A stretch of DNA of 64,000 nt from an uncultured Bacteroidales bacterium (GTDB taxonomy: Bacteria; Bacteroidota; Bacteroidia; Bacteroidales; VadinHA17), in NCBI GenBank assembly GCA_963844935.1, contig CAWJQH010000003.1, forward strand, positions 172,430-236,429, written 5' to 3'. The translations under genes and the position numbers were made by a program. The notes under the pieces are model-generated. The model saw only the letters and a program-made list of their open reading frames with translations. It was not told the DNA's origin and did no database searches. This document shows, in pieces, positions 2,313-33,259 of the stretch. Numbering within the stretch: position 1 is the first letter of the stretch; every line of letters starts with the position of its first letter.

Positions 2313-2366
2313 GTGAAATCTGTATTATATATTATTATCCTCATCATCATTGCCGCAGGCAGCTGA
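2313..2366 (+). CDS. ilv-leu operon leader peptide (MKSVLYIIILIIIAAGS)
   Basis: 17-codon ORF with a GTG start, the only canonical start after the in-frame stop at 2286. It has 6 Ile, 2 Leu and 1 Val, with 9 of these in the 10 codons at positions 4-13. It is followed directly by antiterminator/terminator-capable sequence and then ilvD. Confidence 0.7.
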   Translation: MKSVLYIIILIIIAAGS

Positions 2367-12985: not shown

Positions 12986-14042
12986 CATTGCAGTTTTGCC
13001 CGGAGACGGTATCGGCCCGGAGATTATTGAACAGGCAAAGAAAGTTGTACAGGCTGTCTGTAAGCGATTTAACCATTCGGTCGTTTTCAACTTTGGCCTC
13101 GTTGGTGCAATTGCAATTGATCAGACCGGAACTCCCCTGCCTGATAAAACCCTTGAATTGTGCAAATCGTCTGATGCAGTTCTTTTCGGGGCTATCGGTC
13201 ACCCAAAATATGATAATGATCCCTCTGTAAAGGTCCGGCCTGAGCAGGGCCTTCTCGCCATGCGAAAGGAGCTTGGCTTATATGCAAATATCAGACCTGT
13301 AACAACCTTTCCTGCCCTGATAGATAAATCGCCCCTTAAAAGAGAGATCGTGGAGGGAGCAGATATTTTAATAGTCAGGGAACTTACGGGAGGTCTCTAT
13401 TTCGGAAAGCCCCAGGGAAGGTCTGAGGATGGAAACACTGCTTATGATTCTTGTGTCTACAGTCGCTATGAGATTGAGCGTGTTGTAAAACTTGCCTGTG
13501 AATATGCAATGTCACGTACACGCAAACTCACCGTCGTCGACAAGGCTAATGTTCTTGCCACATCACGGTTATGGCGTGAGACTGCAACTGAAACTGCCAA
13601 GGCGTACAAAGATCTTACGGTCGATTTTATGTTTGTCGATAATGCTGCAATGCAGCTGATACAAAATCCGAAAAGATTTGATGTGATTGTAACTGAAAAC
13701 ATGTTCGGGGATATCCTTTCTGATGAGGCAAGCGTCATAACCGGATCGCTGGGACTTTTGCCATCAGCATCTGTGGGATTGTCAACATCGGTATTTGAAC
13801 CGATACACGGTTCCTATCCCCAGGCAGCCGGAAAGAATATTGCAAATCCGCTTGGCACGATACTCTCAGCAGCCATGATGTTCGATATTGCATTCAAACT
13901 CAAAGAAGAGGCTGACACCATAAAAAGGGCCGTTGAAAAATCCCTTGAAGAAAATTTTGTTACTGAAGATCTCAGCAGGACTGATCCAAAATCCACGTCA
14001 GATGTAGGTGACCGGATCAGCCATTTCATTCTTAATAATTGA
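12975..14042 (+). CDS. leuB: 3-isopropylmalate dehydrogenase
   Basis: [19 protein letters not shown] and [12 protein letters not shown]; 355 aa; overlaps the upstream gene by 11 nt. Confidence 0.94.
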
Positions 14043-14127
14043 GAGAATAACAGGTGATGAAGTTTGTGAAAAATTAACAATATCTCATTAATTCATGTCA
14101 TCCGATTGGTTTTGTTTAAAATTCAAT

Positions 14128-14135
14128 TATTTTTG
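14128..14135 (+). promoter_or_regulatory. -7 promoter motif TATTTTTG
   Basis: Exact TAnnTTTG match 20 nt upstream of the aromatic leader ATG, with TTTG at 14111-14114 upstream. Confidence 0.45.
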
Positions 14136-14155
14136 TAAGCCGGTAAGAGAACAAA

Positions 14156-14221
14156 ATGAATAGCTTACACAAGAATTTTAACCTCTATTACTATTTCTGG
14201 TTTTATTTTGAAAGCCGGTAA
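14156..14221 (+). CDS. aromatic amino acid operon leader peptide (MNSLHKNFNLYYYFWFYFESR)
   Basis: 21-codon ATG ORF containing 4 Phe, 4 Tyr and 1 Trp. Eight consecutive aromatic codons (YYYFWFYF) sit at positions 11-18, and a terminator hairpin follows 41 nt later. Confidence 0.75.
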   Translation: MNSLHKNFNLYYYFWFYFESR

Positions 14222-14262
14222 GGGGGATTGTTGTGTACAGATAATAGAAATTATATGAAAGC

Positions 14263-14290
14263 AAGGGCCCCCGGAAAAGGGCCCTTTTTT
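14263..14290 (+). terminator. attenuator terminator of the aromatic leader
   Basis: AAGGGCCC (14263-14270) pairs with GGGCCCTT (14279-14286) across an 8-nt loop, followed by a T-run to 14290. The pheA ATG is at 14307. Confidence 0.7.
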
Positions 14291-14306
14291 GTTAATGAAC
14301 TTTGAG

Positions 14307-15137
14307 ATGAAAATAGCGATACAGGGAGAAAAAGGAAGTTTTCATGATGTGGCTGCAAGGCAATATTTCGGCTCTGATGAGATAGAACTGGTGGAGTGCC
14401 CGACATTTGATATGACTGTCAATGCCGCAAAACAGGGAAGCGCTGATTTTGCAGTAATGGCAATTGAGAATGCACGATCCGGAAGTATCCTTTACAATTA
14501 CACACTTTTAAGGGAATCAGGACTTAAGATTTTCGGTGAGCATAATGTCAGGATAAAGCAGAATCTTATGGCACTTCCCGGCCAGCTGATATCGGAAATC
14601 AGAGAAATAAGGTCACACCCGATAGCGCTTGCCCAGTGCATGGAATTTCTTAACCGGTATCCGGAAATAATGCTTATTGAGAGCGCCGACACTGCAGGCA
14701 GTGCAAGAATTATAAAAGAAACCGGCCTTCACGGGGTCGCTGCAATAGGCCCTTCAACCGCAGCAAAAATTTATGGCCTTAACATACTTGCAGAGGGTAT
14801 TGAGACCTACAAAAAGAATTACACCAGGTTTCTTGTCATCGGGAACAAGAAAAATCAGAACAGGGAAGGAAACAAAATCTCTGTCTGTTTTGCCACCGGC
14901 CACAAACCAGGTTCACTGGCTGCCGTGCTGGTTGTGCTTGCTGAGATGAATATTAACCTCTCCAAGATTCAATCTGTTCCGCGACTGAACGGTGAGTGGG
15001 AATATATGTTCTACCTTGACCTCGAGTTAAGTAATGGCACAAGCGCGGCGATGGTTGAAAAAGCACTGGAGAAACACACAAGCAACCTGGAAGTGCTGGG
15101 AGTTTACAACAAAAACAATACGCTCCATGAAAGTTAA
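14307..15137 (+). CDS. pheA: prephenate dehydratase
   Basis: PDT domain (KIAIQGEKGSFH ...) plus a C-terminal ACT domain (ISVCFATGHKPGSLAAVL). The track ORF starts at 14289 (TTG); ATG 14307 or 14295 is more likely. Confidence 0.88.
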   Translation: MKIAIQGEKGSFHDVAARQYFGSDEIELVECPTFDMTVNAAKQGSADFAVMAIENARSGSILYNYTLLRESGLKIFGEHNVRIKQNLMALPGQLISEIREIRSHPIALAQCMEFLNRYPEIMLIESADTAGSARIIKETGLHGVAAIGPSTAAKIYGLNILAEGIETYKKNYTRFLVIGNKKNQNREGNKISVCFATGHKPGSLAAVLVVLAEMNINLSKIQSVPRLNGEWEYMFYLDLELSNGTSAAMVEKALEKHTSNLEVLGVYNKNNTLHES

Positions 15138-16320
15138 CCCGGCTGACCGCACACTCACTGTGCAGGAATACTATTTCTCCCAGAAACTCCGGCAGATTGA
15201 CCAGATGAGGAAAGCCGGAGCCAGCATCATCAGTCTTGGAATAGGCAGCCCTGATCAGGCTCCGTCAGAGAATACCGTAAGGCGGCTTATTGAAGAAAGT
15301 ACCAGATCAACCTCGCATGGCTACCAGAGCTATATCGGCATTCCTGAACTGCGGAATGCCTTTGCCGGCTGGTATAAAAAATATTTCGGGGTTGAGCTCA
15401 ATCCTGACAATGAGATCATTCCGCTCATGGGCAGCAAGGAGGGTATCATGCACATCAGCATGGCCTTTGTAAACCAGGGCGATGAAGTCCTCATTCCTGA
15501 CCCCGGTTACCCGACCTACTCGTCAGTGACAAACCTTGTCGGCGGAAAAATCAGGTACTATGAGCTTGATGAAAGAACAGGCTGGATGCCTGACCTGCAA
15601 GCCCTTGAGCTTCTTGACCTGAGCAAGGTGAAACTGATGTGGCTCAATTACCCGCATATGCCAACCGGGACGCCCGGGTCAATAAAACTCTTTGAAGACC
15701 TTGTAGCCTTTGCTGACGCTCACTCAATCCTGATCTGCAATGACAATCCATACAGCTTCATACTGAACAGGAATTACCTCAGTCTTTTGTCAGTTGACGG
15801 GGCAAAAGAGGTTGCCCTTGAGCTGAACTCCCTCAGCAAATCCCACAACATGGCCGGATGGCGTGTCGGCATGGTGGCAGGTCACAGTGAGTACCTGAAG
15901 AGCATACTCAGGGTAAAAAGCAATATGGACTCGGGAATGTTCCTCCCCGTACAGAAGGCTGCTGCCGAGGCGCTTAATAATCCGCCGGAGTGGTACGAAC
16001 AGGTTAACCTGGTTTATGAAAAACGCCGCAAAAAAGTCGAAGAGATCATGGACACCCTTGGCTGCAGATATGACAAAAACCAGGTAGGACTGTTTGTCTG
16101 GGGGCGCATACCTGAATCCGTTACCAGCTGCGAGGATTATGTGGAAGGAATTCTTAATGAAGCCGGCGTCTTTATCACCCCGGGATTTATTTTCGGGAGC
16201 AAAGGGGAACGCTATATCCGCATTTCACTGTGCGCCAGTGATGATTTACTTGAAGAAGCTAAAAAGAGAATCTCCTCTTACACTGACATAGTTAACCGGA
16301 CATCAAGAAAAGAAATATGA
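15127..16320 (+). CDS. class I/II PLP aminotransferase (probable aromatic/prephenate aminotransferase by context)
   Basis: NYPHMPTG and the SLSKSHNMAGWRVG PLP-lysine motif. ATG 15127 (MKVNPADR) is preferred over the track start at 15034, which runs inside pheA. Confidence 0.8.
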   Translation: MKVNPADRTLTVQEYYFSQKLRQIDQMRKAGASIISLGIGSPDQAPSENTVRRLIEESTRSTSHGYQSYIGIPELRNAFAGWYKKYFGVELNPDNEIIPLMGSKEGIMHISMAFVNQGDEVLIPDPGYPTYSSVTNLVGGKIRYYELDERTGWMPDLQALELLDLSKVKLMWLNYPHMPTGTPGSIKLFEDLVAFADAHSILICNDNPYSFILNRNYLSLLSVDGAKEVALELNSLSKSHNMAGWRVGMVAGHSEYLKSILRVKSNMDSGMFLPVQKAAAEALNNPPEWYEQVNLVYEKRRKKVEEIMDTLGCRYDKNQVGLFVWGRIPESVTSCEDYVEGILNEAGVFITPGFIFGSKGERYIRISLCASDDLLEEAKKRISSYTDIVNRTSRKEI

Positions 16321-17162
16321 AAATCGCTGTTGTTGGAATAGGTCTTATAGGAGGTTCGATGATGATTGACCTTCGCAAACGTGGTTTTGCCGATAAAATA
16401 ATCGGTGTTGATTCAAATCTTCAGCATCAGAACATAGCAACACTTTGCGGACTTGTCGATGAAATTGATACACTGGAGAATGCGATTGACAGAAGTGATC
16501 TTATCATACTGTCCACTCCGGTCGATGCAAACTGTCAGATGCTGCCGGGTATACTTGACAGGATTGACGGAACTTCCAAAGTTGTGACAGATATGGGTTC
16601 GACTAAAGGAAGCATCTCAAAGATTTCGGAGCACCATCCTAAACGTGGCCGGTACGTAGCCGCCCATCCTATGGCCGGAACCGAATATTCCGGTCCCCTG
16701 GCCGCCATCGGCAGGCTATTCGATTATAAGCCGGCCATCATATGTGATCCTGAACTTTGCGACCATGATGCGCTTGAGCTTGTTGAAAAGATGCTTACGA
16801 CGCTTAATATGCGGATCGTATATATGAAATCGTCAGAACATGACACACATGTCGCTTACGTCTCCCACATTTCGCATATTACTTCATTCTCGCTGGCACT
16901 GACTGTTCTTGACAAGGAGCATGAGGAGCAGAATATCCTGACACTTGCAGGGGGTGGGTTTGAAAGCACGGTGCGTCTGGCAAAAAGCAACGGGGACACC
17001 TGGGCGCCGATCTTTCTTGAGAATTCCAAATTCATCCTTGAAGTAATTGATACATATACTGAAAAAATGAGCCTGTTCAGGAAGATGATTGCCGAAAAAG
17101 ACCTGAATGGCCTGAAGTCACTTATGGATGAGGCCAACAAAATCAGGAAGATACTTAACTAA
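16317..17162 (+). CDS. tyrA: prephenate dehydrogenase
   Basis: KIAVVGIGLIGGSM Rossmann motif, HPMAGTE, and an ATGA overlap with the upstream stop. Confidence 0.85.
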   Translation: MKIAVVGIGLIGGSMMIDLRKRGFADKIIGVDSNLQHQNIATLCGLVDEIDTLENAIDRSDLIILSTPVDANCQMLPGILDRIDGTSKVVTDMGSTKGSISKISEHHPKRGRYVAAHPMAGTEYSGPLAAIGRLFDYKPAIICDPELCDHDALELVEKMLTTLNMRIVYMKSSEHDTHVAYVSHISHITSFSLALTVLDKEHEEQNILTLAGGGFESTVRLAKSNGDTWAPIFLENSKFILEVIDTYTEKMSLFRKMIAEKDLNGLKSLMDEANKIRKILN

Positions 17163-17177
17163 TTAATTTACAGTATC

Positions 17178-18278
17178 ATGGAAACCGCATTAAATACATT
17201 GCCAATACAGGAATGGAGTGGGTATAAAAACCGCCCGTTCCTTATCTCAGGCCCGTGCAGTGCCGAAACTGAGGAACAGGTTATTAAGACAGCCCGTCAG
17301 CTGGCTGAGTTAAAAACAGTGAATATTTTCCGTGCCGGGATCTGGAAACCGCGGACGCGTCCCGATTCATTCGAGGGAGTTGGATCGGAGGGACTGAAAT
17401 GGCTCAGGAGTGTCAAACAGGAAACTGGGCTTCTTGTCGGTACCGAGGTGGCAAATGAAAAGCACGTTTACGAAGCCCTTAAATATGGCATTGATATGCT
17501 GTGGATCGGGGCCAGGACATCTGTAAATCCGTTCACGGTTCAGGAAATATCCGATGCCCTGAAAGGTGTTGATGTGATGGTGCTTGTCAAAAATCCTGTC
17601 AATCCTGAAATCGACCTTTGGATGGGGGCTATTGAACGCATAGCGAAGGCGGGTATCAGGCATCTCGGAGCTATCCACCGCGGTTTTTCCACATATGAGA
17701 AAACAAGCTACAGGAATCAGCCCAACTGGCAGCTTCCCATCGAGCTTCGTCACCGCATTCCTGACCTTCCTCTCATCTGTGACCCAAGCCATATTGCCGG
17801 ATCGAGGGAATTTCTGAGGGAGATCTCCCAGAAAGCTCTTGACCTGAACTTTGACGGCCTGATGATCGAGTCTCATATCGACCCTGATAAAGCTTTGAGC
17901 GATGCGGCACAGCAGGTTACCCCGGATGGTCTCCGGAACCTTTTAAGCAGACTGGTCATTCGTAATCCTGTTGCATCAGATCCGAAGCTGCTTGATATTC
18001 TCGGTGAATTACGCCAGCAGATTGATCTCTTTGATGAACACCTGCTTGATCTCCTGGAAAAGCGCATGAAAGTTGCGGAGACTATCGGGCGGTACAAGAA
18101 GGAGAACAACATCACCATTCTCCAGCCTACCCGCTGGGATGAAATCATAAACAGGGTCATGAGCAAGACGGGGGCCAAGGGACTGAGCGCTGAATTTATT
18201 GATACAATTTTTAAGGCTATTCACCAGGAGTCAATAAATCACCAGATGAAGATAATGAACAACGGAGAGAAAAAATAA
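17178..18278 (+). CDS. bifunctional 3-deoxy-7-phosphoheptulonate (DAHP) synthase type I-beta / chorismate mutase type II
   Basis: The N-terminal ~270 aa form a KDO8P/DAHP-synthase-like TIM barrel (GPCSAE, RAGIWKPRT, CDPSH). The C-terminal ~90 aa form an AroQ chorismate mutase (LRQQIDLFDEHLLDLLEKRMKVAETIGRYK). Confidence 0.85.
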   Translation: METALNTLPIQEWSGYKNRPFLISGPCSAETEEQVIKTARQLAELKTVNIFRAGIWKPRTRPDSFEGVGSEGLKWLRSVKQETGLLVGTEVANEKHVYEALKYGIDMLWIGARTSVNPFTVQEISDALKGVDVMVLVKNPVNPEIDLWMGAIERIAKAGIRHLGAIHRGFSTYEKTSYRNQPNWQLPIELRHRIPDLPLICDPSHIAGSREFLREISQKALDLNFDGLMIESHIDPDKALSDAAQQVTPDGLRNLLSRLVIRNPVASDPKLLDILGELRQQIDLFDEHLLDLLEKRMKVAETIGRYKKENNITILQPTRWDEIINRVMSKTGAKGLSAEFIDTIFKAIHQESINHQMKIMNNGEKK

Positions 18279-18333
18279 TGATACTTGATAAGTGATTATT
18301 ACAGCAATGTTTATGCTATGAACAAATAATTAC

Positions 18334-18341
18334 TATTTTTG
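18334..18341 (+). promoter_or_regulatory. -7 promoter motif TATTTTTG
   Basis: Exact TAnnTTTG match 17 nt upstream of the his leader ATG. Confidence 0.45.
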
Positions 18342-18358: not shown

Positions 18359-18415
18359 ATGTCATTAAACACGTTACATCATCATCATCTTCATACTTGC
18401 ACTCAGGCGAGGTAA
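18359..18415 (+). CDS. his operon leader peptide (MSLNTLHHHHLHTCTQAR)
   Basis: 18-codon ATG ORF in which 5 of 6 consecutive codons are CAT (His). An antiterminator-capable segment overlaps its 3' end and a terminator follows. Confidence 0.8.
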   Translation: MSLNTLHHHHLHTCTQAR

Positions 18416-18446
18416 GAATGGTGTAGTGTAACCATAAATATAACAG

Positions 18447-18478
18447 ACCCGTCTGAGCAGATCAGGCGGGTTTTTTTT
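18447..18478 (+). terminator. attenuator terminator of the his leader
   Basis: 10-bp stem ACCCGTCTGA (18447-18456) / TCAGGCGGGT (18462-18471) with one G-U pair and a GCAGA loop, followed by T8. Confidence 0.8.
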
Positions 18479-18513: not shown

Positions 18514-19371
18514 ATGAGCAAACTGAAAATTGCAATCCAGAAGAGTGGCAGGCTGAGCGAGAGCTCCCGCAAACTGTTCGAAGAATGCGGCATCAAGATC
18601 TCAAACGGTGCAGGAACACTAAAGATCGTAGCCAGTAACTTCCCCATTGAAATACTGTTTCTTCGTGACGATGATATCCCGCAATATGTTGAGCAGGATG
18701 TGGCAGATATCGGGATCGTAGGAGAGAACATGGTTTTTGAAAAAAACAAGGAAGTAGATATCCTTGAACAGCTTGGTTTTGCCGGTTGCAGGCTGAGCCT
18801 GGCCATACCAAAGGAGGATAACTACTCCGGACATGGTTTTTTCATGAACAAGAGAGTGGCAACCAGCTATCCGCGGTTACTGGGTGAATACCTTTTAAAA
18901 AATGATATTACTGCAACGGTTGAAGAGATCAGCGGCAGTGTAGAGATCGCTCCGGGAGTGGGGCTTGCCGATGCAATATGCGATATCGTGAGCTCAGGAA
19001 GCACCCTGCTCATGAACGGGTTAAAGGAGGTGGAGACAATAATGAAAAGCCAGGCAGTAATTATTGCAAACAGGAACATCCCTCCTGATAAAAAGTTAAT
19101 CCTGGAAAAACTGCTCTTCAGGATCAGGGCAGTAAAGAATGCCAGGGAGAACAAGTATATCCTGCTGAATGCTCCCCGTGAGGCCATAACGGAGATCTGC
19201 CAGATTCTGCCCGGCATGAAGAGCCCGACGATACTGCCCCTGGCAGAGGAGGGATGGTGCAGCCTGCACTCCGTAGTGAAAGAGGATGAATTCTGGGATA
19301 GGATAGATCAGCTTAAAAATGCCGGAGCAGAGGGCATCCTCGTAATACCAATAGAAAAAATGGTACTGTGA
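18514..19371 (+). CDS. hisG: ATP phosphoribosyltransferase (long form)
   Basis: 285 aa including the C-terminal regulatory domain; LKIAIQKSGRLSE N-terminus; first gene of the his operon. Confidence 0.92.
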   Translation: MSKLKIAIQKSGRLSESSRKLFEECGIKISNGAGTLKIVASNFPIEILFLRDDDIPQYVEQDVADIGIVGENMVFEKNKEVDILEQLGFAGCRLSLAIPKEDNYSGHGFFMNKRVATSYPRLLGEYLLKNDITATVEEISGSVEIAPGVGLADAICDIVSSGSTLLMNGLKEVETIMKSQAVIIANRNIPPDKKLILEKLLFRIRAVKNARENKYILLNAPREAITEICQILPGMKSPTILPLAEEGWCSLHSVVKEDEFWDRIDQLKNAGAEGILVIPIEKMVL

Positions 19372-25477: not shown

Positions 25478-25522
25478 ATGAAGACAAAAATATTATATAC
25501 CTGGCGCTGGTGCAGCTCATAA
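25478..25522 (+). CDS. trp leader peptide (MKTKILYTWRWCSS)
   Basis: 14-codon ATG ORF with two TGG codons separated by one codon (W-R-W). Alternative pairings and a terminator follow, then the TrpB-like gene. Confidence 0.7.
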   Translation: MKTKILYTWRWCSS

Positions 25523-25575: not shown

Positions 25576-25604
25576 AGGCACGCTGATCACAGCGTGCCTT
25601 TTTT
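25576..25604 (+). terminator. attenuator terminator of the trp leader
   Basis: Perfect 10-bp stem AGGCACGCTG (25576-25585) / CAGCGTGCCT (25590-25599) with an ATCA loop, followed by T6. Confidence 0.8.
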
Positions 25605-25629: not shown

Positions 25630-26994
25630 ATGGAAAAGATTACCAAAATTCTGTTAAGCGAAAACGAAATGCCCCGGCAGTGGTACAATATTGTTGCTGA
25701 TATGCCAAACAAGCCGTTGCCGCCGCTGAACCCCGCCACCGGTAAGCCGGTGGGCCCGGAAGATCTGTCGGTCATTTTTCCGATGGAGCTTATAAAACAG
25801 GAAGTATCGGCTGAGAGATACATTGATATCCCTGATGAGGTACTCGATCTGTACAGGACCTTTCGCCCCTCACCTCTTTTCCGGGCACGGAACCTTGAAA
25901 AGGCCCTGGGAACAAAGAGCAGGATATACTACAAATATGAGGGCGGTAATTATTCAGGCTCTCATAAGGCAAATACTGCCATCCCGCAGGCATATTACAA
26001 TAAAATGGAAGGCGTAAGGCGGATAACAACAGAGACAGGAGCCGGTCAGTGGGGAAGCGCAATGAGCTTCGCATGCAACCACTTCGGACTTGAACTGCTT
26101 GTATTCATGGTAAAAGTCAGTTACAATCAGAAACCCGGGCGCAAGCTCTTAATGAATACTTACGGTGCCAGGGTCGTTCCGTCGCCAAGCACAATGACCG
26201 CTGCCGGAAGGAGGGTGCTTGAACTCGATCCTGAGTCACCGGGAAGTCTTGGCATCGCCATTTCCGAAGCAATGGAGATTGCTGCACAGGATCCGTACAC
26301 AAAATACTCGCTCGGCAGTGTGCTTAACCATGTTATTCTTCATCAGACCATTATAGGTCAGGAGGCATTGCTCCAGATGGAAAAAACCGGTGACTACCCC
26401 GATGTGGTGATCGGATGCTTCGGCGGGGGATCAAATTTCTCCGGAATTGCATTTCCATTCCTGCGCGAAAACCTGAATAACGGGAAAAAGACTAGGCTTG
26501 TAGCTGTCGAACCTTCCTCCTGTCCCAAGCTGACAAAAGGAAAATTCACGTACGATTTCGGTGATCAGTCAGGCATGACTCCTCTATTGCCCATGTACAC
26601 GCTGGGTCATAATTTCATTCCGGACAAGATCCATGCGGGGGGTCTTCGTTATCATGGTGCCGGCGTCCTCGTCAGCCAGCTGCGCAAGGACGGATTTGTC
26701 GAGGCAAAAGCCAAGCAGCAGCGTGAATGCTTCGAAGGAGGTATTCTCTTCGCCAGAACGGAAGGTATCCTTCCTGCACCTGAATCGTCATATGCCATTG
26801 CCGGCGCTCTTGATGAAGCAAGGAGAGCGGACATTGAAGGTGTGTCAAAGACAATTCTTTTCAATCTCAGCGGCCACGGTCATTTTGACATCTCTGCCTA
26901 TGAGAAGTATTTCGAAGGCAACCTGCCTGACCATGAAACCACGGCAGAGGAGATAGAAAAGTCCCTTTCGGAGCTGAAACTACCTGTTACCTGA
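25630..26994 (+). CDS. trpB2: TrpB2-type tryptophan synthase beta-like PLP enzyme
   Basis: 454 aa with the N-terminal extension typical of TrpB2 (MPRQWYNIVADMPNKPLPPLNP), the GSHKANTA PLP-lysine motif, and GCFGGGSNFSG. No trpA or other trp genes are adjacent. Confidence 0.85.
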   Translation: MEKITKILLSENEMPRQWYNIVADMPNKPLPPLNPATGKPVGPEDLSVIFPMELIKQEVSAERYIDIPDEVLDLYRTFRPSPLFRARNLEKALGTKSRIYYKYEGGNYSGSHKANTAIPQAYYNKMEGVRRITTETGAGQWGSAMSFACNHFGLELLVFMVKVSYNQKPGRKLLMNTYGARVVPSPSTMTAAGRRVLELDPESPGSLGIAISEAMEIAAQDPYTKYSLGSVLNHVILHQTIIGQEALLQMEKTGDYPDVVIGCFGGGSNFSGIAFPFLRENLNNGKKTRLVAVEPSSCPKLTKGKFTYDFGDQSGMTPLLPMYTLGHNFIPDKIHAGGLRYHGAGVLVSQLRKDGFVEAKAKQQRECFEGGILFARTEGILPAPESSYAIAGALDEARRADIEGVSKTILFNLSGHGHFDISAYEKYFEGNLPDHETTAEEIEKSLSELKLPVT

Positions 26995-27131: not shown

Positions 27132-29771
27132 TCAGCTGCACTTAGATGTGCCGCAGTCGCTGCAGATGAGGCAACCCTCCTGGTAAACCAGGTTGGTGGA
27201 ACCGCATGTGCCGCACTTGCCCTTGGCCTTTGTTCCGTTGGGGATGTAACGCTTCAGCGAGCGCTCAATTCCGTTCTTCCATGTGTTGATGGATTCGCTG
27301 TCGAGCTTCATCGATGACACCAGCTCGACCACATCCTTGGCCGGCATCCCGTAGCGCAGCACACCTGATATCAGCCTGGCGTAATTCCAGAACTCAGGCT
27401 TGAACATATGAGACAGTCCCCCGAGAGTGTTCTTGTAACCGTACTTATCGGTGTACTGGAAGTCGTACCGGGTATTACCCGCATCGTCCTTGTTCTTGAT
27501 GATCTTTCCCTTGACAATGCTCTTGGGTATTGGGAACATCTCGTCATCCTGGAGGCCCGTGAAGATCTCATAAGGTACACCGTCCTTCAGCCCCACAAAG
27601 GCAATCCACTTCTCTTCATTATTCTGGAAGCGGAGTACGTCGGCCTCAAGCACCTTGGGCCTGATCGGGGACCAGTCCTGTTTCTTGTCCTCCTTGTTCG
27701 ATACAAGCACTCCTGCCCTCGAGCCGTCGCGGTAAACCGTTGCTCCCTTGCATCCTTCCTTCCACGCAGTTAGATAGAGCTCGGAGACAAGCTCTTCCTT
27801 TGCATCTGCAGGAAGGTTGATTGTCACGCTGATCGAGTGATCCACCCATTTCTGAATGGCTCCCTGCATGCGCACCTTGGCCATCCAGTCAACATCATTG
27901 GAGGTGGCCTTGTAGTAAGGCGATTTCTCAACAATTGTATTGATCTCCTCTTCGGTCATGCTCCTTACCTGTTCGTAGTCATAACCGTTCTGCTTCATCC
28001 ACTCGATGAACTTATGATGGAATACCACAAATTCTTCCCAGTGGTCGCCCACCTCGTCGGTGAAGCTCACCGTCACATCCTTGTCATTCGGATTCACCTT
28101 GCGGCGCCGCTTGTAGAAAGGCAGGAACACCGGTTCAATACCCGATGTTGTCTGGCTCATCAGGCTTGTTGATCCTGTCGGAGCGATTGTCAGCAGGGCA
28201 ATGTTGCGTCTGCCGTGTTTTTCCATCTCGGCGTACATCTCAGGATCAGCCTCGCGGAGACGGTTGATGAAAGGATTGTTACGTTCTCTTTCCTTGTCGT
28301 ACATCGGGAAAGCACCCCGCTCCTTTGCCATCTCGGTGGATGACCTGTATGCTTCAATGGCAAGTGTACGGTGCACACCGACTGAAAACTCTGTTGCCTC
28401 GTCGGTTCCGTACCGCAAACCCAGGGCAGCAAGCATGTCTCCCTCGGCGGTGATGCCGATGCCGGTACGTCTTCCTTCCTCGGTCTTATGCCGTATATTT
28501 TCCCACAGGTTCCGTTCAACAAGTTTCAGTTCCGCAGGTTCAGGATCATTGTCGATCTTGGCTATGATGGAATCTATCTTCTCCTGCTCAAGGTCGATGA
28601 TGTCATCCATGATCCTTTGTGAGAGATGTACATGCTCCCTGAACAGCTTATAGTCAAATGAGGCTTTTGGGGTAAAGGGGTTCTTGACATACCCGAAGAG
28701 GTTGATTGCAATCAGCCGGCAGCTGTCGTACGGGCAGAGCGGGATTTCGCCGCACGGATTCGTTGATACTGTCTCATAGCCCAGGTCGGCATAGCAGTCA
28801 GGCACGCTCTCGCGCTTGATTGTATCCCAGAAGAGCATCCCAGGCTCAGCTGATTTCCACGCATTATGGACTATCTTGTTCCAGAGCTTGCGTGCATCAA
28901 TCTCCTTAACGAATTTCGGATTTTCTGATTTGATCGGATACTGCTGGCGGAAGCTTCTGCCTTTGATCACCGACTCCATGAAGTCGTCTGTTATCTTCAC
29001 CGAGACGTTTGCGCCCGTGACTTTTCCTGCCTCAAGCTTAGCGTCGATAAAACTTTCGGCATCAGGATGCTTGATTGATATTGACAGCATGAGTGCGCCG
29101 CGGCGGCCGTCCTGGGCCACCTCGCGGGTTGAGTTTGAATAGCGCTCCATGAAAGGCACCACGCCCGTTGAGGTGAGCGCGCTGTTGAGCACCGGCGAGC
29201 CCTTGGGGCGTATGTGCGAGAGATCATGACCGACTCCGCCTCGGCGTTTCATGAGCTGCACCTGCTCCTGGTCGATCTTCATTATCCCGCCGTAGGAATC
29301 GGAATCGCCTTTGTTGCCTATGACAAAGCAGTTCGACAGCGAAGCGATCTGGTAGTCATTGCCTATTCCGGTCATCGGTCCGCCCTGCGGAATAATATAT
29401 TTGAAATCCTTAAAAGCCTTATAGATGGTTTCTGCCGGAAGCGGATTCGGGTACTTCAGTTCAATGCGGTGTATCTCTGAAGCAAGGCGACGGTGCATGT
29501 CGTCCGGAGTTTTTTCGTAGAGATTTCCAAATGAATCCTTCAGGGCATACTTGCTTGCCCATACCTTGGCTGCCAGGTCGTCACCGCCAAAGTACTCGCG
29601 TGTTGCCTTTATAGCATCCTCATAGAGGTAAGTGGTTTGTTCACTTGTCCCTTCCGGCATGGTCTCCTTCTCCGCCAATGTCTCTTCCTTTTTCAACTTC
29701 TTCTCCTCTTTTTTAATCATCTCCTTCTCGTTAGGGGCGACGGATGGCATGTGGACAAATGAATCTCCCAT
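27132..29771 (-). CDS. nrdJ: class II (adenosylcobalamin-dependent) ribonucleotide reductase
   Basis: 879-aa RNR core with TNPCGEIPL (active-site Cys-Glu) and YDSCRLIAINL. It lacks a class I partner beta subunit nearby. The C-terminal Cys-rich zinc ribbon CGTCGSTNLVYQEGCLICSDCGTSKC is typical of many class II enzymes. Confidence 0.85.
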   Translation of the reverse strand: MGDSFVHMPSVAPNEKEMIKKEEKKLKKEETLAEKETMPEGTSEQTTYLYEDAIKATREYFGGDDLAAKVWASKYALKDSFGNLYEKTPDDMHRRLASEIHRIELKYPNPLPAETIYKAFKDFKYIIPQGGPMTGIGNDYQIASLSNCFVIGNKGDSDSYGGIMKIDQEQVQLMKRRGGVGHDLSHIRPKGSPVLNSALTSTGVVPFMERYSNSTREVAQDGRRGALMLSISIKHPDAESFIDAKLEAGKVTGANVSVKITDDFMESVIKGRSFRQQYPIKSENPKFVKEIDARKLWNKIVHNAWKSAEPGMLFWDTIKRESVPDCYADLGYETVSTNPCGEIPLCPYDSCRLIAINLFGYVKNPFTPKASFDYKLFREHVHLSQRIMDDIIDLEQEKIDSIIAKIDNDPEPAELKLVERNLWENIRHKTEEGRRTGIGITAEGDMLAALGLRYGTDEATEFSVGVHRTLAIEAYRSSTEMAKERGAFPMYDKERERNNPFINRLREADPEMYAEMEKHGRRNIALLTIAPTGSTSLMSQTTSGIEPVFLPFYKRRRKVNPNDKDVTVSFTDEVGDHWEEFVVFHHKFIEWMKQNGYDYEQVRSMTEEEINTIVEKSPYYKATSNDVDWMAKVRMQGAIQKWVDHSISVTINLPADAKEELVSELYLTAWKEGCKGATVYRDGSRAGVLVSNKEDKKQDWSPIRPKVLEADVLRFQNNEEKWIAFVGLKDGVPYEIFTGLQDDEMFPIPKSIVKGKIIKNKDDAGNTRYDFQYTDKYGYKNTLGGLSHMFKPEFWNYARLISGVLRYGMPAKDVVELVSSMKLDSESINTWKNGIERSLKRYIPNGTKAKGKCGTCGSTNLVYQEGCLICSDCGTSKCS

Positions 29772-29928
29772 TATAGTGCAAGAATATTACAGTTTGAAAA
29801 TAAGCTACTTAATCTACCTTCGATAAAAATGAACGGGTTTTGCTAAAATAGACTAGTAAGTGAGAGGAGACAAGAATAAAAGTTCTCTTTTATCAACATA
29901 CATATTAACTTTATAAACCGCTGTGGTG

Positions 29929-29959
29929 AAAAAAAAGAGGCCGGTTCCCCGGCCTCTTT
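29929..29959 (-). terminator. rho-independent terminator downstream of the TonB receptor gene
   Basis: On the minus strand: GAGGCCGG-GGAA-CCGGCCTC stem-loop (extendable by A-T pairs) followed by T8; 22 nt after the receptor stop. Confidence 0.8.
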
Positions 29960-29980
29960 AAACAACTGAAAATAAGCCGT

Positions 29981-32900
29981 TTAGAAGATGAGACGAATAC
30001 CCAGCAGGCAACCCCATGTACTTGAGGTACTTAAGCTCTTGCTGAGAGTGGTCTTATTAGTAAAATCTTCCAGAGATGTGGCATTGAGCCTGTATGTCGG
30101 AGCCGCAGTTGCGCTGCCCCTGTTGACAACTGTCAGCGGGCGAACGTTTTCATAGCTGGCCAGGGGGTTGTATGTGTATGTGCCCCAGCTGTCATTTATC
30201 ATGTTGCCCACATTCAGGAGGTCGACGCTGAACTGGAGAGTATACTTGCGCTCTGACCCGAAGTTTGTAAAGAGATCCTGAATGATTTTGGCGTCAAACC
30301 TGTGCATCCAGGGCTGAATTTCGCCGTATCTTTCAGCGTACTGACCCTTGCGGCTGCTGAGATATTCATTGCGGTTGACATATTCCCAGAATGCATTCTG
30401 CTGTTCTTCTGCAGTCATTAATGTTCCTCCGGATGGAGTATAATTTACAAAGGTAATTTCAGATGCAGTTTCCGGGATATACATAATGTCAGCTGTTATT
30501 CCATCGCCGTTAAGGTCGTTGGAATATGTGTATGTCCACCTTCCTGTCTGATAACCCTGGTATACCAGCGAGAATGTGGTTGCAAAGTGTTTAGCATATT
30601 CAATCTTGTATGATACACTACCGATAAGTTTGTGAGGAGTGGAGAAAAGTGAATAGCTCATTTCAGGATCGTTCAGACTTCCGATAGAAGTATTGGATGA
30701 ATAAGCTGAATAAGCTGACGAACCTGGGTTGGCGCTGATGTCTTTTGCCTCAGTAAAAGTATATGCAAACATACCGGACAGACCTTTGGTGAAGTTCTTG
30801 GTCAGCATTGCAGTAACCGAATACTGGTAACCCTGCTTGGTATTTCTCAGCTCCGTAGCTGCACTGACAGTACTGACAACCTTGGCTGCAGTGCTGTTTG
30901 ACCAGAACATACGGTTATCCGGGCCGGCCAGCGTTCCTGTTGGATCCGACAGGTTTATGTTTATCTGCTGGACTGCATTGATATCCTTTGAATACATGCC
31001 CTCCAGAGTAAATATCATACTCCACGGCAGTTCAACGTCAACAGCTAAGTTAGAGCGCCATATCTGCGGGAATTTAAATTTCTTGCCGACCTGGGTAAGT
31101 GTAGAATTGTTCGGCAGCGTGCTTGGACTCTGCGGGAAAAGAGTGGGATCGCTTGCTATGTACTCTTTAAAATCAGGATTGAATTCCAGTCCCACAAGGT
31201 TTGGATTACCCGGGCCCCAGCCAATTTCAGGCGACTGAATAACGCCGGAGTTGGTTGGCTGGTTGGTGAACCATACAAACGGAAGCATACCGGTAAAGAC
31301 ACCTGTTCCTCCGCGAACCTGCAGAGAGCGGTCTCCTCTTACATCCCAGTTAAATCCGAGGCGCGGTGAGACAACAAGCTGGCTCTCGGGCCATGTGCCA
31401 ACGTCCATTTTCTGGCCGCCGTAAAAAGTGAGGGCTGCGATGGCAGGGTTATCCTGCAGTTCTTCCAGGTACAGCGGTAGTTCCAGGCGAACACCGTAGG
31501 TAAGTTTAAGTTTGGGCACAACTGCCCACTCATCCTGTGCATAAACCGATGCAAACCCAAAGGTTGCAGTTGCACCCGGTGCATCCTCACCGTTATAACC
31601 GTAAGTAACCCCAAACCCGCTGGGATCAGCACCATTTAAGAAATCATCCACAGAGGCATAACGGTAATAGGAGGTACCTTCGCGGATATATGAATTACGG
31701 AACCAAAGACGGTCAAATGAGATACCTGCGGTAAGAGTGTGGTTATTAAGGTTTATTGAGAGGTTATCAGTAAATGTCATTGTCTTGTTCTGGACATCAT
31801 TGTTATATGAGAAGAGCTCATAGCCGAATGACATGTACTGATCACCGCCTTCCCAGATGTCAACAAAGGGGAAAAGGTCCGAATTGCTGGTACGGGTATC
31901 CTGTATAAAAGTATAGCTGGCAAGGAACTTGTTCGAGAACTTGCTTCCGAAACTGCTGTTAAGTTCACCGGTGATTGAACGCACTGTGTTCTTAAACCCG
32001 TAGAATGCATTCGAGAAAGCCATTGACTGGCTGCTGATACGGCCGGAGTTTCTTGCGTTGTTTGGCGGGCCGCTGGTAGGATTGGTTTGCTGGTCTGAGG
32101 TACCGACAACATCATTGTAACGGATAGTGAATTTGTGATCCTTGTTGATGTTCCAGTCGAGGCGGGCAAGTATTTTAGTATTTATATTTTTGAAGGGATC
32201 ATAGTCCTTGTATTTGCCCGGATCGTAGTTATATGTTTCAAGCAGGTGATCTCTGACTGCGACCATGTCTGATTCAAGTGTTCTTGAGATCATCAGGTCC
32301 TGGTTGGCTACGCCGTCTGTACTTGGTTTCCACGTAACTCCCGGAATAGTCTCGGTACCATACTCACCGCTGAGGAAGAAGAAGAGTTTGTTCTTGATGA
32401 TGGGTCCGCCGATGCGTCCGCCGAAGTTAAGTGAACTTCTGGAGTTTGCTCCAACAACTTCCTTTCCGTCAACAGTGTTTCCGGTAAATAATTCCGGACG
32501 AATGTATGTATAAACTGATCCCTTGAACTCATTGTCACCGCTGCGTGTGACGGCGTTGATACTGGCGCCTGTGAACTGTGACATACGCACATCATAGGGT
32601 GCCATACTTACTGAAATTTCCTCAATGGCATCAAGTGCGATCGGTTGTGATTCGCCGCCGGGGAGAGGATTGCTGCTCAGTCCGAAGTTGTTGTTGAAAG
32701 CGGCGCCGTCAATTGTAATGGTGTTGAAACGTCCGTCCCTTCCTCCGAATGAGTTACCCTGTGCCTGGGGAGTAAACTTGGTGAAATCGGTGATACTCCT
32801 GCTGATCGACGGCATGCTTGCCAGCTCACGTCCGCTGACGTTGGTCTGGGTACCTGCACGCTCTGAACTGAGGATTGAGTTCTTGAGCCCAGCCGTAACA

Positions 32901-33259
32901 ACAACTTCCTGCAATGCCGTAGTAGTTTCAGTCAGCTGGCCGTTCTGAACATAGTTTTCACCAAGCTTGAGATAAATATCAGTGTAGGTGTTGGCTGAAT
33001 AACCCACGAAGGAGACATCAACCTTGTAAGGACCGCCGATACGCATGTTCTGGATCCTGTAGTTGCCGGAATTATCACACAGTGCTGCGTACTGCGTTCC
33101 TGATGGAACGTGCACCGCAACAACGGTAGCACCCGGAAGAGATTCTCCGTTCGAGTCGGTAATTTTTCCACTTAGTGAAGAGGTCGTCACCTGGGCCATC
33201 AGGGTCATTGACCCCAGGAACAGCGACAACAGAATGAAAGTGAACTTAAGTTTTCGCAT
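29981..33259 (-). CDS. TonB-dependent outer-membrane receptor with N-terminal CarboxypepD_reg domain (Oar-like; no SusD partner)
   Basis: 1092 aa. Signal peptide (MRKLKFTFILLSLFLGSMTLMAQ), then a carboxypeptidase-regulatory-like fold (GKITDSNGESLPGATVVAV...GNYRIQNM), a plug, a long beta-barrel, and a C-terminal ...GIRLIF ending in the terminal aromatic residue. Confidence 0.85.
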   Translation of the reverse strand: MRKLKFTFILLSLFLGSMTLMAQVTTSSLSGKITDSNGESLPGATVVAVHVPSGTQYAALCDNSGNYRIQNMRIGGPYKVDVSFVGYSANTYTDIYLKLGENYVQNGQLTETTTALQEVVVTAGLKNSILSSERAGTQTNVSGRELASMPSISRSITDFTKFTPQAQGNSFGGRDGRFNTITIDGAAFNNNFGLSSNPLPGGESQPIALDAIEEISVSMAPYDVRMSQFTGASINAVTRSGDNEFKGSVYTYIRPELFTGNTVDGKEVVGANSRSSLNFGGRIGGPIIKNKLFFFLSGEYGTETIPGVTWKPSTDGVANQDLMISRTLESDMVAVRDHLLETYNYDPGKYKDYDPFKNINTKILARLDWNINKDHKFTIRYNDVVGTSDQQTNPTSGPPNNARNSGRISSQSMAFSNAFYGFKNTVRSITGELNSSFGSKFSNKFLASYTFIQDTRTSNSDLFPFVDIWEGGDQYMSFGYELFSYNNDVQNKTMTFTDNLSINLNNHTLTAGISFDRLWFRNSYIREGTSYYRYASVDDFLNGADPSGFGVTYGYNGEDAPGATATFGFASVYAQDEWAVVPKLKLTYGVRLELPLYLEELQDNPAIAALTFYGGQKMDVGTWPESQLVVSPRLGFNWDVRGDRSLQVRGGTGVFTGMLPFVWFTNQPTNSGVIQSPEIGWGPGNPNLVGLEFNPDFKEYIASDPTLFPQSPSTLPNNSTLTQVGKKFKFPQIWRSNLAVDVELPWSMIFTLEGMYSKDINAVQQININLSDPTGTLAGPDNRMFWSNSTAAKVVSTVSAATELRNTKQGYQYSVTAMLTKNFTKGLSGMFAYTFTEAKDISANPGSSAYSAYSSNTSIGSLNDPEMSYSLFSTPHKLIGSVSYKIEYAKHFATTFSLVYQGYQTGRWTYTYSNDLNGDGITADIMYIPETASEITFVNYTPSGGTLMTAEEQQNAFWEYVNRNEYLSSRKGQYAERYGEIQPWMHRFDAKIIQDLFTNFGSERKYTLQFSVDLLNVGNMINDSWGTYTYNPLASYENVRPLTVVNRGSATAAPTYRLNATSLEDFTNKTTLSKSLSTSSTWGCLLGIRLIF

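Follow-up and report, generated by a model that had tools for sequence, protein, structure and literature searches.

A conserved leader-peptide attenuator probably controls the pheA operon of an uncultured Bacteroidales bacterium

Introduction

The closest described system to the one reported here is the 5' region of pheA-aspC3 in Flavobacterium psychrophilum, for which a mapped transcription start, a leader peptide MNTNNTFYSNNSFYFYWNIGRDCYMVI and condition-dependent read-through have been reported (Guérin et al. 2021, ISME Commun; PMC9723704, Supplementary Information Appendix D9, Table S7). In Bacteroides thetaiotaomicron, an attenuator has been predicted at the head of an operon with the gene order pheA, hisHb, aroA(I-beta)-aroQ and tyrA (Song et al. 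2005, BMC Biol; PMC1173090, Table 7, from Merino's attenuator database). Besides, the Bacteroid-trp leader (RF01692) is a Bacteroidota-specific leader-peptide RNA motif of the aromatic pathway (Weinberg et al. 2010; PMC2864571), and the pheL-pheA leader of Escherichia coli is represented by the Rfam family Phe_leader (RF01859; pheL survey PMC3082878). Here we analyzed a stretch of 64,000 nucleotides (nt) from an uncultured Bacteroidales bacterium (contig CAWJQH010000003.1, positions 172,430 to 236,429 of the forward strand; hereafter the window), in which a short open reading frame (ORF) with a run of aromatic codons precedes a four-gene operon. The operon consists of pheA, a class I/II aminotransferase gene, tyrA and a gene for a bifunctional 3-deoxy-D-arabino-heptulosonate 7-phosphate (DAHP) synthase / chorismate mutase. 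It is very probable that the leader acts as a ribosome-mediated leader-peptide transcription attenuator of this operon, sensing mainly charged tRNA-Phe and tRNA-Tyr. An attenuator at this place had been proposed in an initial annotation made from the sequence, and the proposal is now backed by conservation, by the codon pattern and by alternative structures, with the four genes assigned by Pfam and NCBIfam.

The window and F. psychrophilum belong to the same phylum, and in both of them the leader stands ahead of pheA and an aminotransferase gene, with a sigma-A promoter of the TAnnTTTG type, a 5' region of about 170 nt and a mixed aromatic run (FY...FYFYW in F. psychrophilum). The F. psychrophilum ORF differs in that it is annotated with 27 codons and runs through the segment that we call segment 2 (see below) instead of stopping before it. 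It contains 7 aromatic codons in two groups versus 9 here, the primary sequences are largely unlike, and the window operon adds tyrA and the DAHP synthase/chorismate mutase gene behind the leader. The codon mix, the promoter, the position at the operon head and an alternating segment of the GGGAUU... type place the window leader among Bacteroidota pheA leaders of the F. psychrophilum type, be it by homology or by convergence. The B. thetaiotaomicron operon, which also comes from Bacteroidales and which we compared by its description, has the same four aromatic genes behind a predicted terminator/antiterminator attenuator; tyrA is its last gene while it is the third one here, and the source lists an attenuator only, with no leader peptide. 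In the supplements of the B. thetaiotaomicron transcriptome paper, neither F/Y-rich small ORFs nor an entry for BT_3936 were found.

The pheL-pheA region of E. coli is similar in general layout, with a leader ORF containing a codon run, 1:2/2:3/3:4 hairpins and an intrinsic terminator before pheA. It differs in having Phe codons only and in controlling just one gene, for a chorismate mutase-prephenate dehydratase; homology to the window is not detectable, and the promoter type and the translation-initiation signals are unlike. In E. coli, tyrA and aroF are under TyrR control, while leaders with several regulatory amino acids are those of thr (Thr and Ile), ilvGMEDA (Ile/Leu/Val) and ilvBN (Val/Leu). 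The window resembles these thr/ilv leaders in combining codons for several amino acids in one leader, an arrangement in which any shortage relieves (here, would relieve) termination, whereas the amino acids, taxa and sequences are different and Phe and Tyr alternate almost strictly here. An attenuator survey by Vitreschak from 2004 is said to mention Bacteroidetes/Chlorobi. The Bacteroid-trp leader is different as well, with Trp codons and a location upstream of trp genes, and RF01692 had no match anywhere in the window, even at E-values (E) up to 1. For Phe_leader, a search of 301 nt gave 21.5 bits (E 0.21) versus a gathering score of 55, so the leader is not a member of RF01859. Scans of the whole window with Rfam, at gathering thresholds and at E up to 1, returned no match, T-box and metabolite riboswitches included.

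Results

The aromatic codon run is conserved among relatives

Translation reproduced the leader ORF of the initial annotation, that is 21 codons with 4 Phe, 4 Tyr and 1 Trp, in which eight aromatic codons (YYYFWFYF) form an unbroken series (Table 1). Among the ATG ORFs of 8-40 codons on both strands of the window, it is the sole case with at least 6 aromatic residues in an 8-residue stretch, scoring 8 of 8. The context of its start codon is A-rich (AACAAAATG) and has no Shine-Dalgarno sequence, which is usual for Bacteroidota.

To place the leader among its relatives, we scanned for PheA with one genome per species and obtained 80 loci, mostly labelled Bacteroidales, with a PheA identity of 68-92%; a PheA protein search gave relatives at 71-99% identity, all of them close, among the 120 matches listed. 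A short ORF rich in aromatic codons precedes pheA by about 150 nt in most of the 80 loci, with MNIVYKYFISFYYFYFYFKNR as a typical peptide. A covariance model of the RNA 3' of the stop codon found one match per locus, always at this position, in 76 of the 80 loci and in the window, while one locus (L023) has no upstream sequence to examine. Comparative folding and covariation analysis were carried out on 72 aligned leaders, the window included, to which the counts below refer.

The leader ATG is invariant across this alignment. A counterpart of the ORF with 19-22 codons exists in 70 of the 72 leaders, and its length is exactly 21 codons in 54. A comparison of pheA upstream regions, which the initial annotation had put forward as a check, turned out in its favor: in the best 8-codon stretch of each leader, Phe, Tyr and Trp account for 94.8% of the codons (546 of 576). 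The third positions in that stretch are T (380), C (189) or G (7, all in TGG) and never A (0), and the second positions switch freely between T (333) and A (215), with the peptide reading FYFYFYF in most relatives. Since A or G at the third position of such codons leads to Leu or stop, the restriction to T and C points to selection on the encoded amino acids, unlike what would be expected for a merely U-rich RNA. All indels inside the run are multiples of three. In front of the run, leader codons 3-7 differ in their residues (IVY, SLH, IVC, ICK) with the pairing described below retained, indicating that this part of the peptide is constrained as RNA. Directly 3' of the stop codon, GGGG or AGGG is found in most leaders.

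One relative deviates in its reading frame. In L035 (2850-2936), a one-base difference in an A-run before the stop leads to a 28-codon leader (…FKKNKGIFVYR), so that translation would continue across segment 2, similarly to the leader of F. psychrophilum; a homopolymer sequencing error is also possible.

The TATTTTTG box that the initial annotation had noted in front of the ORF is present, and a TAnnTTTG box was found in 71 of the 72 leaders, in 58 of which its end lies 20 nt ahead of the leader ATG. In Flavobacterium this box spans -12 to -5 (PMC9723704), which would put +1 of the window near 14140, about 5 nt past the box, and would give a 5' untranslated region of about 16 nt.

Segment 2 has two alternative pairing partners

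The RNA from the leader codons to pheA contains three helices which share two short segments and are mutually exclusive in the canonical order 1:2/2:3/3:4 (Table 1). One of them joins segment 2, immediately behind the leader, to segment 1 inside the leader codons. In the minimum-energy folds of the window, computed for the complete leader as well as for the nascent RNA, it consists of the pairs 14166-14172/14231-14237, 14174-14177/14226-14229 and 14182-14186/14221-14225. At the family level, ATTGTATACAAA and ATCTCC pair with TTTGTATACAG and GGGGAT of the GGGGAUUUUUGUAUAC-type segment that follows the stop codon. These helices are about 84% paired, and both sides have changed in 6 of 11 and 2 of 6 pairs; at pair 36/103, for example, 54 sequences have U-A and 11 have C-G. 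When nascent folds ending at segment 2 were computed, 66 of the 72 leaders showed segment 2 paired with codons 2-11 along 10 nt or more.

The other partner of segment 2 is the terminator 5' arm, called segment 3, and the resulting hairpin would be an antiterminator. In the window it is built from GGGGG 14222-14226 with CCCCC 14268-14272 at the outer end, UU 14228-14229 with GG 14266-14267, UUGU 14231-14234 with GCAA 14261-14264, and an inner hairpin at 14238-14257. The two homopolymer tracts had been located correctly in the initial annotation, which saw in them only a weak antiterminator and left the switch without an explanation. This part of its reading does not hold, for GGGGG:CCCCC belongs, as the outer end, to a conserved antiterminator that competes with the pairing of segment 1 and segment 2. 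The antiterminator is the minimum-energy fold of the segment 2-3 stretch in all leaders (72 of 72), with a mean energy of -15.5 kcal/mol and a mean z of -4.4. In a model-guided alignment, a realignment which leans towards the model structure, it is 91.3% paired with 7 pairs changed on both sides, its outer helix is 95.7% paired, and its covariation score was reached by none of 500 shuffles and by no slid control. Both arms have changed jointly in the divergent lineages L021/L050, L053/L054, L073 and L070.

The third helix is the intrinsic terminator, the arms of which (14263-14270/14279-14286) and the T-run ahead of the pheA ATG at 14307 are present as first annotated. Its energy is about -15 kcal/mol, and it was also picked up by a terminator scan. 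Its 5' arm overlaps the 3' arm of the antiterminator, with 14263-14270 common to both. The terminator hairpin with a T-run exists in 72 of the 72 leaders, where it is 93.1% paired with compensatory changes in 5 of 9 pairs. Besides the codon run, two stretches of the alignment are near-invariant, namely segment 2 (GGGGATTTTTGTATACAG), which adjoins the stop codon, and segment 3 (GCAAGGGTCCC) in the terminator 5' arm.

The full leader of the window folds into the segment 1:2 pairing together with the terminator (-39.8 kcal/mol), and the local hairpin inside the ORF forms the tip of this extended stem-loop. In the relatives, the equivalent local pairing joins the U-rich F/Y run to A-rich Lys/Asn/Arg codons. 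When codons 11-13 are masked, the best fold of the window becomes the antiterminator.

We also folded the published F. psychrophilum sequence and obtained the same three helices as in the window. Codons just upstream of FYFYW pair with GGGAUUGUU, an antiterminator of -14.8 kcal/mol (GGGAUUGU...ACAAUCCC) overlaps the terminator 5' arm, and the terminator is formed by AAUCCCGUCU...AGGCGGGAUU with a U-run.

Two side observations concern these structures. In the full-length fold, AACAAAA at the translation start (14150-14156) pairs with the terminator tail UUUUGUU (14287-14293), a predicted pairing that would hide the leader start site in terminated transcripts. Elsewhere in the window, the antiterminator model has a weak match on the minus strand at 29928-29984 (21.6 bits, E 0.0086), between the genes at 27132-29771 and 29981-33259, which is most likely an unrelated hairpin.

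Table 1. Coordinates of the leader elements, the operon genes and the direct repeat in the window
Feature	Position	Strand	Remarks
AAGCCGGTAAG repeat, first copy	14137-14147	+	spans the predicted transcription start; repeat not conserved
Promoter -7 box TATTTTTG	14128-14135	+	fits the Bacteroidota sigma-A consensus TAnnTTTG
Leader ORF	14156-14221	+	21 codons and TAA; peptide MNSLHKNFNLYYYFWFYFESR (MNSLHKNFNLYYYFWFYF then ESR)
Segment 1, 5' arm of the anti-antiterminator	14164-14186	+	inside leader codons 3-11
Regulatory codon run, codons 11-18	14186-14209	+	TAT TAC TAT TTC TGG TTT TAT TTT = YYYFWFYF
Local hairpin inside the leader ORF	14197-14218	+	CUGGUUUU 14197-14204 (holds UGG) with AAAGCCGG 14211-14218
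AAGCCGGTAAG repeat, second copy	14212-14222	+	last leader codons, stop and first G of segment 2; lineage-specific
Segment 2, AGGGGGAUUGUUGUGUACAG	14221-14240	+	begins at the last base of the stop codon; partner is segment 1 or segment 3
Antiterminator hairpin, segment 2 with segment 3	14222-14272	+	minimum-energy fold, -16.4 kcal/mol
Intrinsic terminator	14263-14292	+	stem AAGGGCCC 14263-14270 with GGGCCCTT (GGGCCCUU) 14279-14286, 8-nt loop, U-run 14287-14292
pheA, prephenate dehydratase with ACT domain	14307-15137	+	Pfam PDT (1.7e-57) and ACT; NCBIfam prephenate dehydratase
Class I/II aminotransferase	15127-16320	+	probable start 15127, longest ORF from 15034; Pfam, NCBIfam
tyrA, prephenate dehydrogenase	16317-17162	+	Pfam PDH_N and PDH_C; NF006307, 326 bits vs cut-off 295
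Bifunctional DAHP synthase / chorismate mutase	17178-18278	+	Pfam DAHP_synth_1 and CM_2; NCBIfam

Proposed mechanism and points against it

From these elements we propose the following mechanism. Transcription would begin at the predicted start past the TAnnTTTG box, and the 21-codon leader would be translated as RNA polymerase proceeds. Segment 2, which is G-rich/U-rich and starts from the stop codon, may then pair either with segment 1 (leader codons ~3-10) or with segment 3 to give the antiterminator. When Phe and Tyr are plentiful, the ribosome would reach the stop codon, where its footprint would lie over the first 10-12 nt of segment 2, and after its release segment 1 would pair with segment 2. 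In both cases segment 3 would remain free, the terminator at 14263-14286 with its U-run would form, and transcription would halt about 15 nt short of pheA. When Phe-tRNA or Tyr-tRNA is scarce, the ribosome would stall in the eight-codon aromatic run, directly 3' of segment 1, and would keep segment 1 off segment 2, in which a queued ribosome would help. The free segment 2 would pair with segment 3 once this is made, so that the terminator would be blocked and the operon transcribed. If the leader is not translated at all, the segment 1:2 pairing would lead to the terminator, and transcription would end.

The locus has the features by which leader-peptide attenuators are recognized, namely a short ORF with a cluster of cognate codons, an intrinsic terminator between this ORF and the first structural gene, and an antiterminator helix that is mutually exclusive with the terminator in the computed folds. 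A sequestering segment lies beside the regulatory codons and the stop codon adjoins segment 2, with the caveat that segment 1 is located just upstream of the run. Translation of the leader and a rise of read-through when the cognate charged tRNA is scarce are predicted, with indirect support from the purely synonymous variation at third positions and from the published read-through of the F. psychrophilum counterpart.

Several observations weigh against this interpretation. A ribosome stalled late in the run would not cover segment 1, for which reason such stalls would need steric exclusion or a queued ribosome. The covariation of the antiterminator is absent from the plain MAFFT alignment, and its outer stem is nearly invariant with few compensatory changes, so the direct covariation evidence is modest; the near-invariance is to be expected, given the two pairing partners that this sequence has. 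The window antiterminator also contains two internal mismatches relative to the family consensus. The folding check proposed by the initial annotation gave a divided result: the three alternative helices were found, but full-length equilibrium folds with one masked ribosome keep the terminator at 96% of the stall positions across the 72 leaders, and at 87% when a trailing ribosome is added. The switch must therefore rest on sterics and on the kinetics of folding during transcription. For the trp leader of E. coli, the terminator is likewise the more stable structure, and the antiterminator must win kinetically by forming first; by analogy, the same kinetic win must be needed here. Besides, three of the 80 loci (L004, L015 and L016) have no leader, and the element is thus dispensable in some lineages. 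In all three of these loci, leuB is immediately followed by pheA (L004, 2840-3003; L015 and L016, upstream of 3001); the promoter box, the leader and the antiterminator are missing, and transcription of pheA presumably comes by read-through of the leu operon. L004, which belongs to the clade of the window itself, keeps only the T-run and the sequence 3' of it, which fits a deletion of about 200 nt. Finally, leader translation, the transcription start and the terminated transcript are predictions in this organism, made from its DNA.

Alternative explanations

The initial annotation had suggested that an 11-nt direct repeat, AAGCCGGTAAG, might take part in the switching. The 11-mer does occur twice, with the second copy one base further (14212-14222, not 14211-14221), and exactly 2 copies in the 64-kb window versus 0.02 expected by chance is statistically unexpected. 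In some constrained folds GCCGGU 14139-14144 pairs with GCCGGU 14214-14219, and the repeat could act through such pairing of its CCGG core or through binding of a factor. We consider this very improbable and rejected a role of the repeat in the switch, since it lacks conservation (11/11 in the window alone, 9/11 in two relatives, L001 and L007, and no more than 8/11 in any of the remaining 69 leaders) and its 5' copy lies across the predicted transcription start, so that the RNA would hold CCGGUAAG at most. The 3' copy is already in use as the 3' arm of the local hairpin. It is even harder to accept a switch that works independently of translation, such as a metabolite riboswitch, a T-box-like RNA or a protein-binding element, with the aromatic ORF as a U-rich by-product. 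Long near-invariant nucleotide stretches (GGGGATTTTTGTATAC, GCAAGGGTCCC) are what ligand-binding RNAs show, and in Bacteroidota, which have no Shine-Dalgarno sequences, translation of an ORF is unreadable from sequence. However, each of the invariant stretches is accounted for by its two pairing partners, while a by-product would explain neither the synonymous T/C third positions of the run (no A, and G in TGG alone) nor its indels in multiples of three, nor the conservation of the frame, the ATG and the spacing from the stop to segment 2. Together with the lack of any Rfam riboswitch or T-box match in the window, even at E up to 1, and with the further short ORFs of the same layout which carry regulatory-codon runs for other amino acids in the window (see below), this makes such a switch highly improbable.

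Another possibility is that the hairpin at 14263-14292 merely terminates the upstream ilv-leu operon or a stable small transcript, and that the ORF encodes a functional hydrophobic peptide unrelated to the control of pheA. The end of leuB at 14042 is only about 220 nt upstream, and short hydrophobic peptides do exist. Nevertheless, the interval from leuB to the leader contains a conserved promoter box, whereas no promoter box is found in the ~15 nt separating the terminator from pheA, and the N-terminal residues of the peptide vary with the RNA pairing retained. The antiterminator overlaps the terminator in every relative, and the leaderless variants have pheA directly after leuB. The probability of this explanation is therefore extremely small, and attenuation by a translated leader is the reading that we prefer.

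The Trp codon

According to the initial annotation, the leader samples all three aromatic aminoacyl-tRNA pools. This is right for Phe and Tyr, whose codons are conserved family-wide, but the Trp codon is specific to a clade: among the 72 leaders, UGG is found in the clade of the window only (window, L001, L003, L005, L007, L008), plus L070 at another position. Sensing of Trp is thus possible from the sequence and not conserved. In a trivalent attenuator for Phe, Tyr and Trp, the UGG at 14198-14200 would add read-through on tryptophan starvation, which would match the DAHP synthase of the common pathway. The codon stands in the middle of the run, at the same position throughout the window clade; it arose independently in L070, and W also ends the run FYFYW of the F. 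psychrophilum leader. Since two mutations separate TGG from TTY or TAY, drift under pure F/Y selection is an unlikely origin. On the other hand, W is absent from 65 of the 72 leaders and so does not define the family, and there is a single Trp codon. The UGG of the window is base-paired in the local hairpin (14197-14204/14211-14218), and Cys codons occur in the run in the window clade, both of which suggest relaxed or RNA-level constraints. Moreover, the window has another short ORF, with two Trp codons and followed by a terminator-like hairpin, in front of a TrpB-like gene. Taken together, a trivalent response is conceivable but doubtful, and it is only tentatively that we consider a phylum-wide Phe/Tyr leader family of Bacteroidota outside Rfam, in which the gain of Trp in the window clade would have produced a true attenuator with three inputs, Phe, Tyr and Trp, for the enzyme at the entry of the aromatic pathway.

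Operon setting

The operon is flanked by an ilv-leu cluster upstream, ending with leuB ~220 nt before the terminator, and by hisG at 18514 downstream. The longest ORF in the pheA frame of the window opens at TTG 14289, and several close PheA database entries (among P0001-P0005) have 292-294 amino acids versus 276 here. Such extended starts would fall inside the terminator/attenuator, and in these gene calls the start was probably set too far upstream. The stretch GGGGATTTTTG is similar to TAnnTTTG and was considered as an internal promoter, which we do not favor, with the first position of the box mismatched and the stretch accounted for by two pairing partners.

Other candidate leaders in the window

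Three more short ORFs with runs of regulatory codons, each followed by a terminator-like hairpin and a T-run, were found in the window, before ilvD, hisG and a TrpB-like gene. The candidate His leader (18359-18415, plus strand; MSLNTLHHHHLHTCTQAR) has 5 His codons in 6 and a TATTTTTG box at 18333-18340, and a GC-rich hairpin of 12 base pairs (18445-18473) with a T-run stands just before hisG and hisD. The candidate Trp leader (25478-25522, plus strand; MKTKILYTWRWCSS) contains two Trp codons with a TATATTTG box upstream, and it is followed by a GGCACGCUG/CAGCGUGCC hairpin at 25577-25598, a T-run and the TrpB-like pyridoxal phosphate enzyme at 25630-26994 (NF009057, 710 bits); it has no match to the Bacteroid-trp family of Rfam. 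The candidate branched-chain leader (2313-2366, plus strand; (M)KSVLYIIILIIIAAGS) has an IIILIII run, an assumed GTG start and a TACTTTTG box upstream, with a hairpin at about 2401-2426 and a T-run directly before ilvD (2435) and the ilvB-ilvN-ilvC-leu cluster. With these three further candidates, the organism appears to use the attenuation strategy generally.

Discussion

In conclusion, the leader element is real and very probably an attenuator with a classical mechanism, of an already known kind which has no curated RNA family. No principle is changed by it, given a textbook mechanism, the prior report from F. psychrophilum and the prediction in B. thetaiotaomicron. It is a clean and well-conserved instance of classical attenuation outside Proteobacteria, in a phylum with another promoter type and no Shine-Dalgarno sequences, and its Phe and Tyr codons, which alternate nearly strictly, show how one leader can be matched to an operon for the synthesis of two amino acids. 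From the 72 aligned leaders a testable four-segment model is obtained, and the covariance model could serve to annotate this leader, un-catalogued and at present missed by gene callers, across Bacteroidales genomes. If the doubtful three-input reading of the family is true, the 25-kb block with three further candidate leaders would be a compact natural test bed for attenuation without Shine-Dalgarno sequences.

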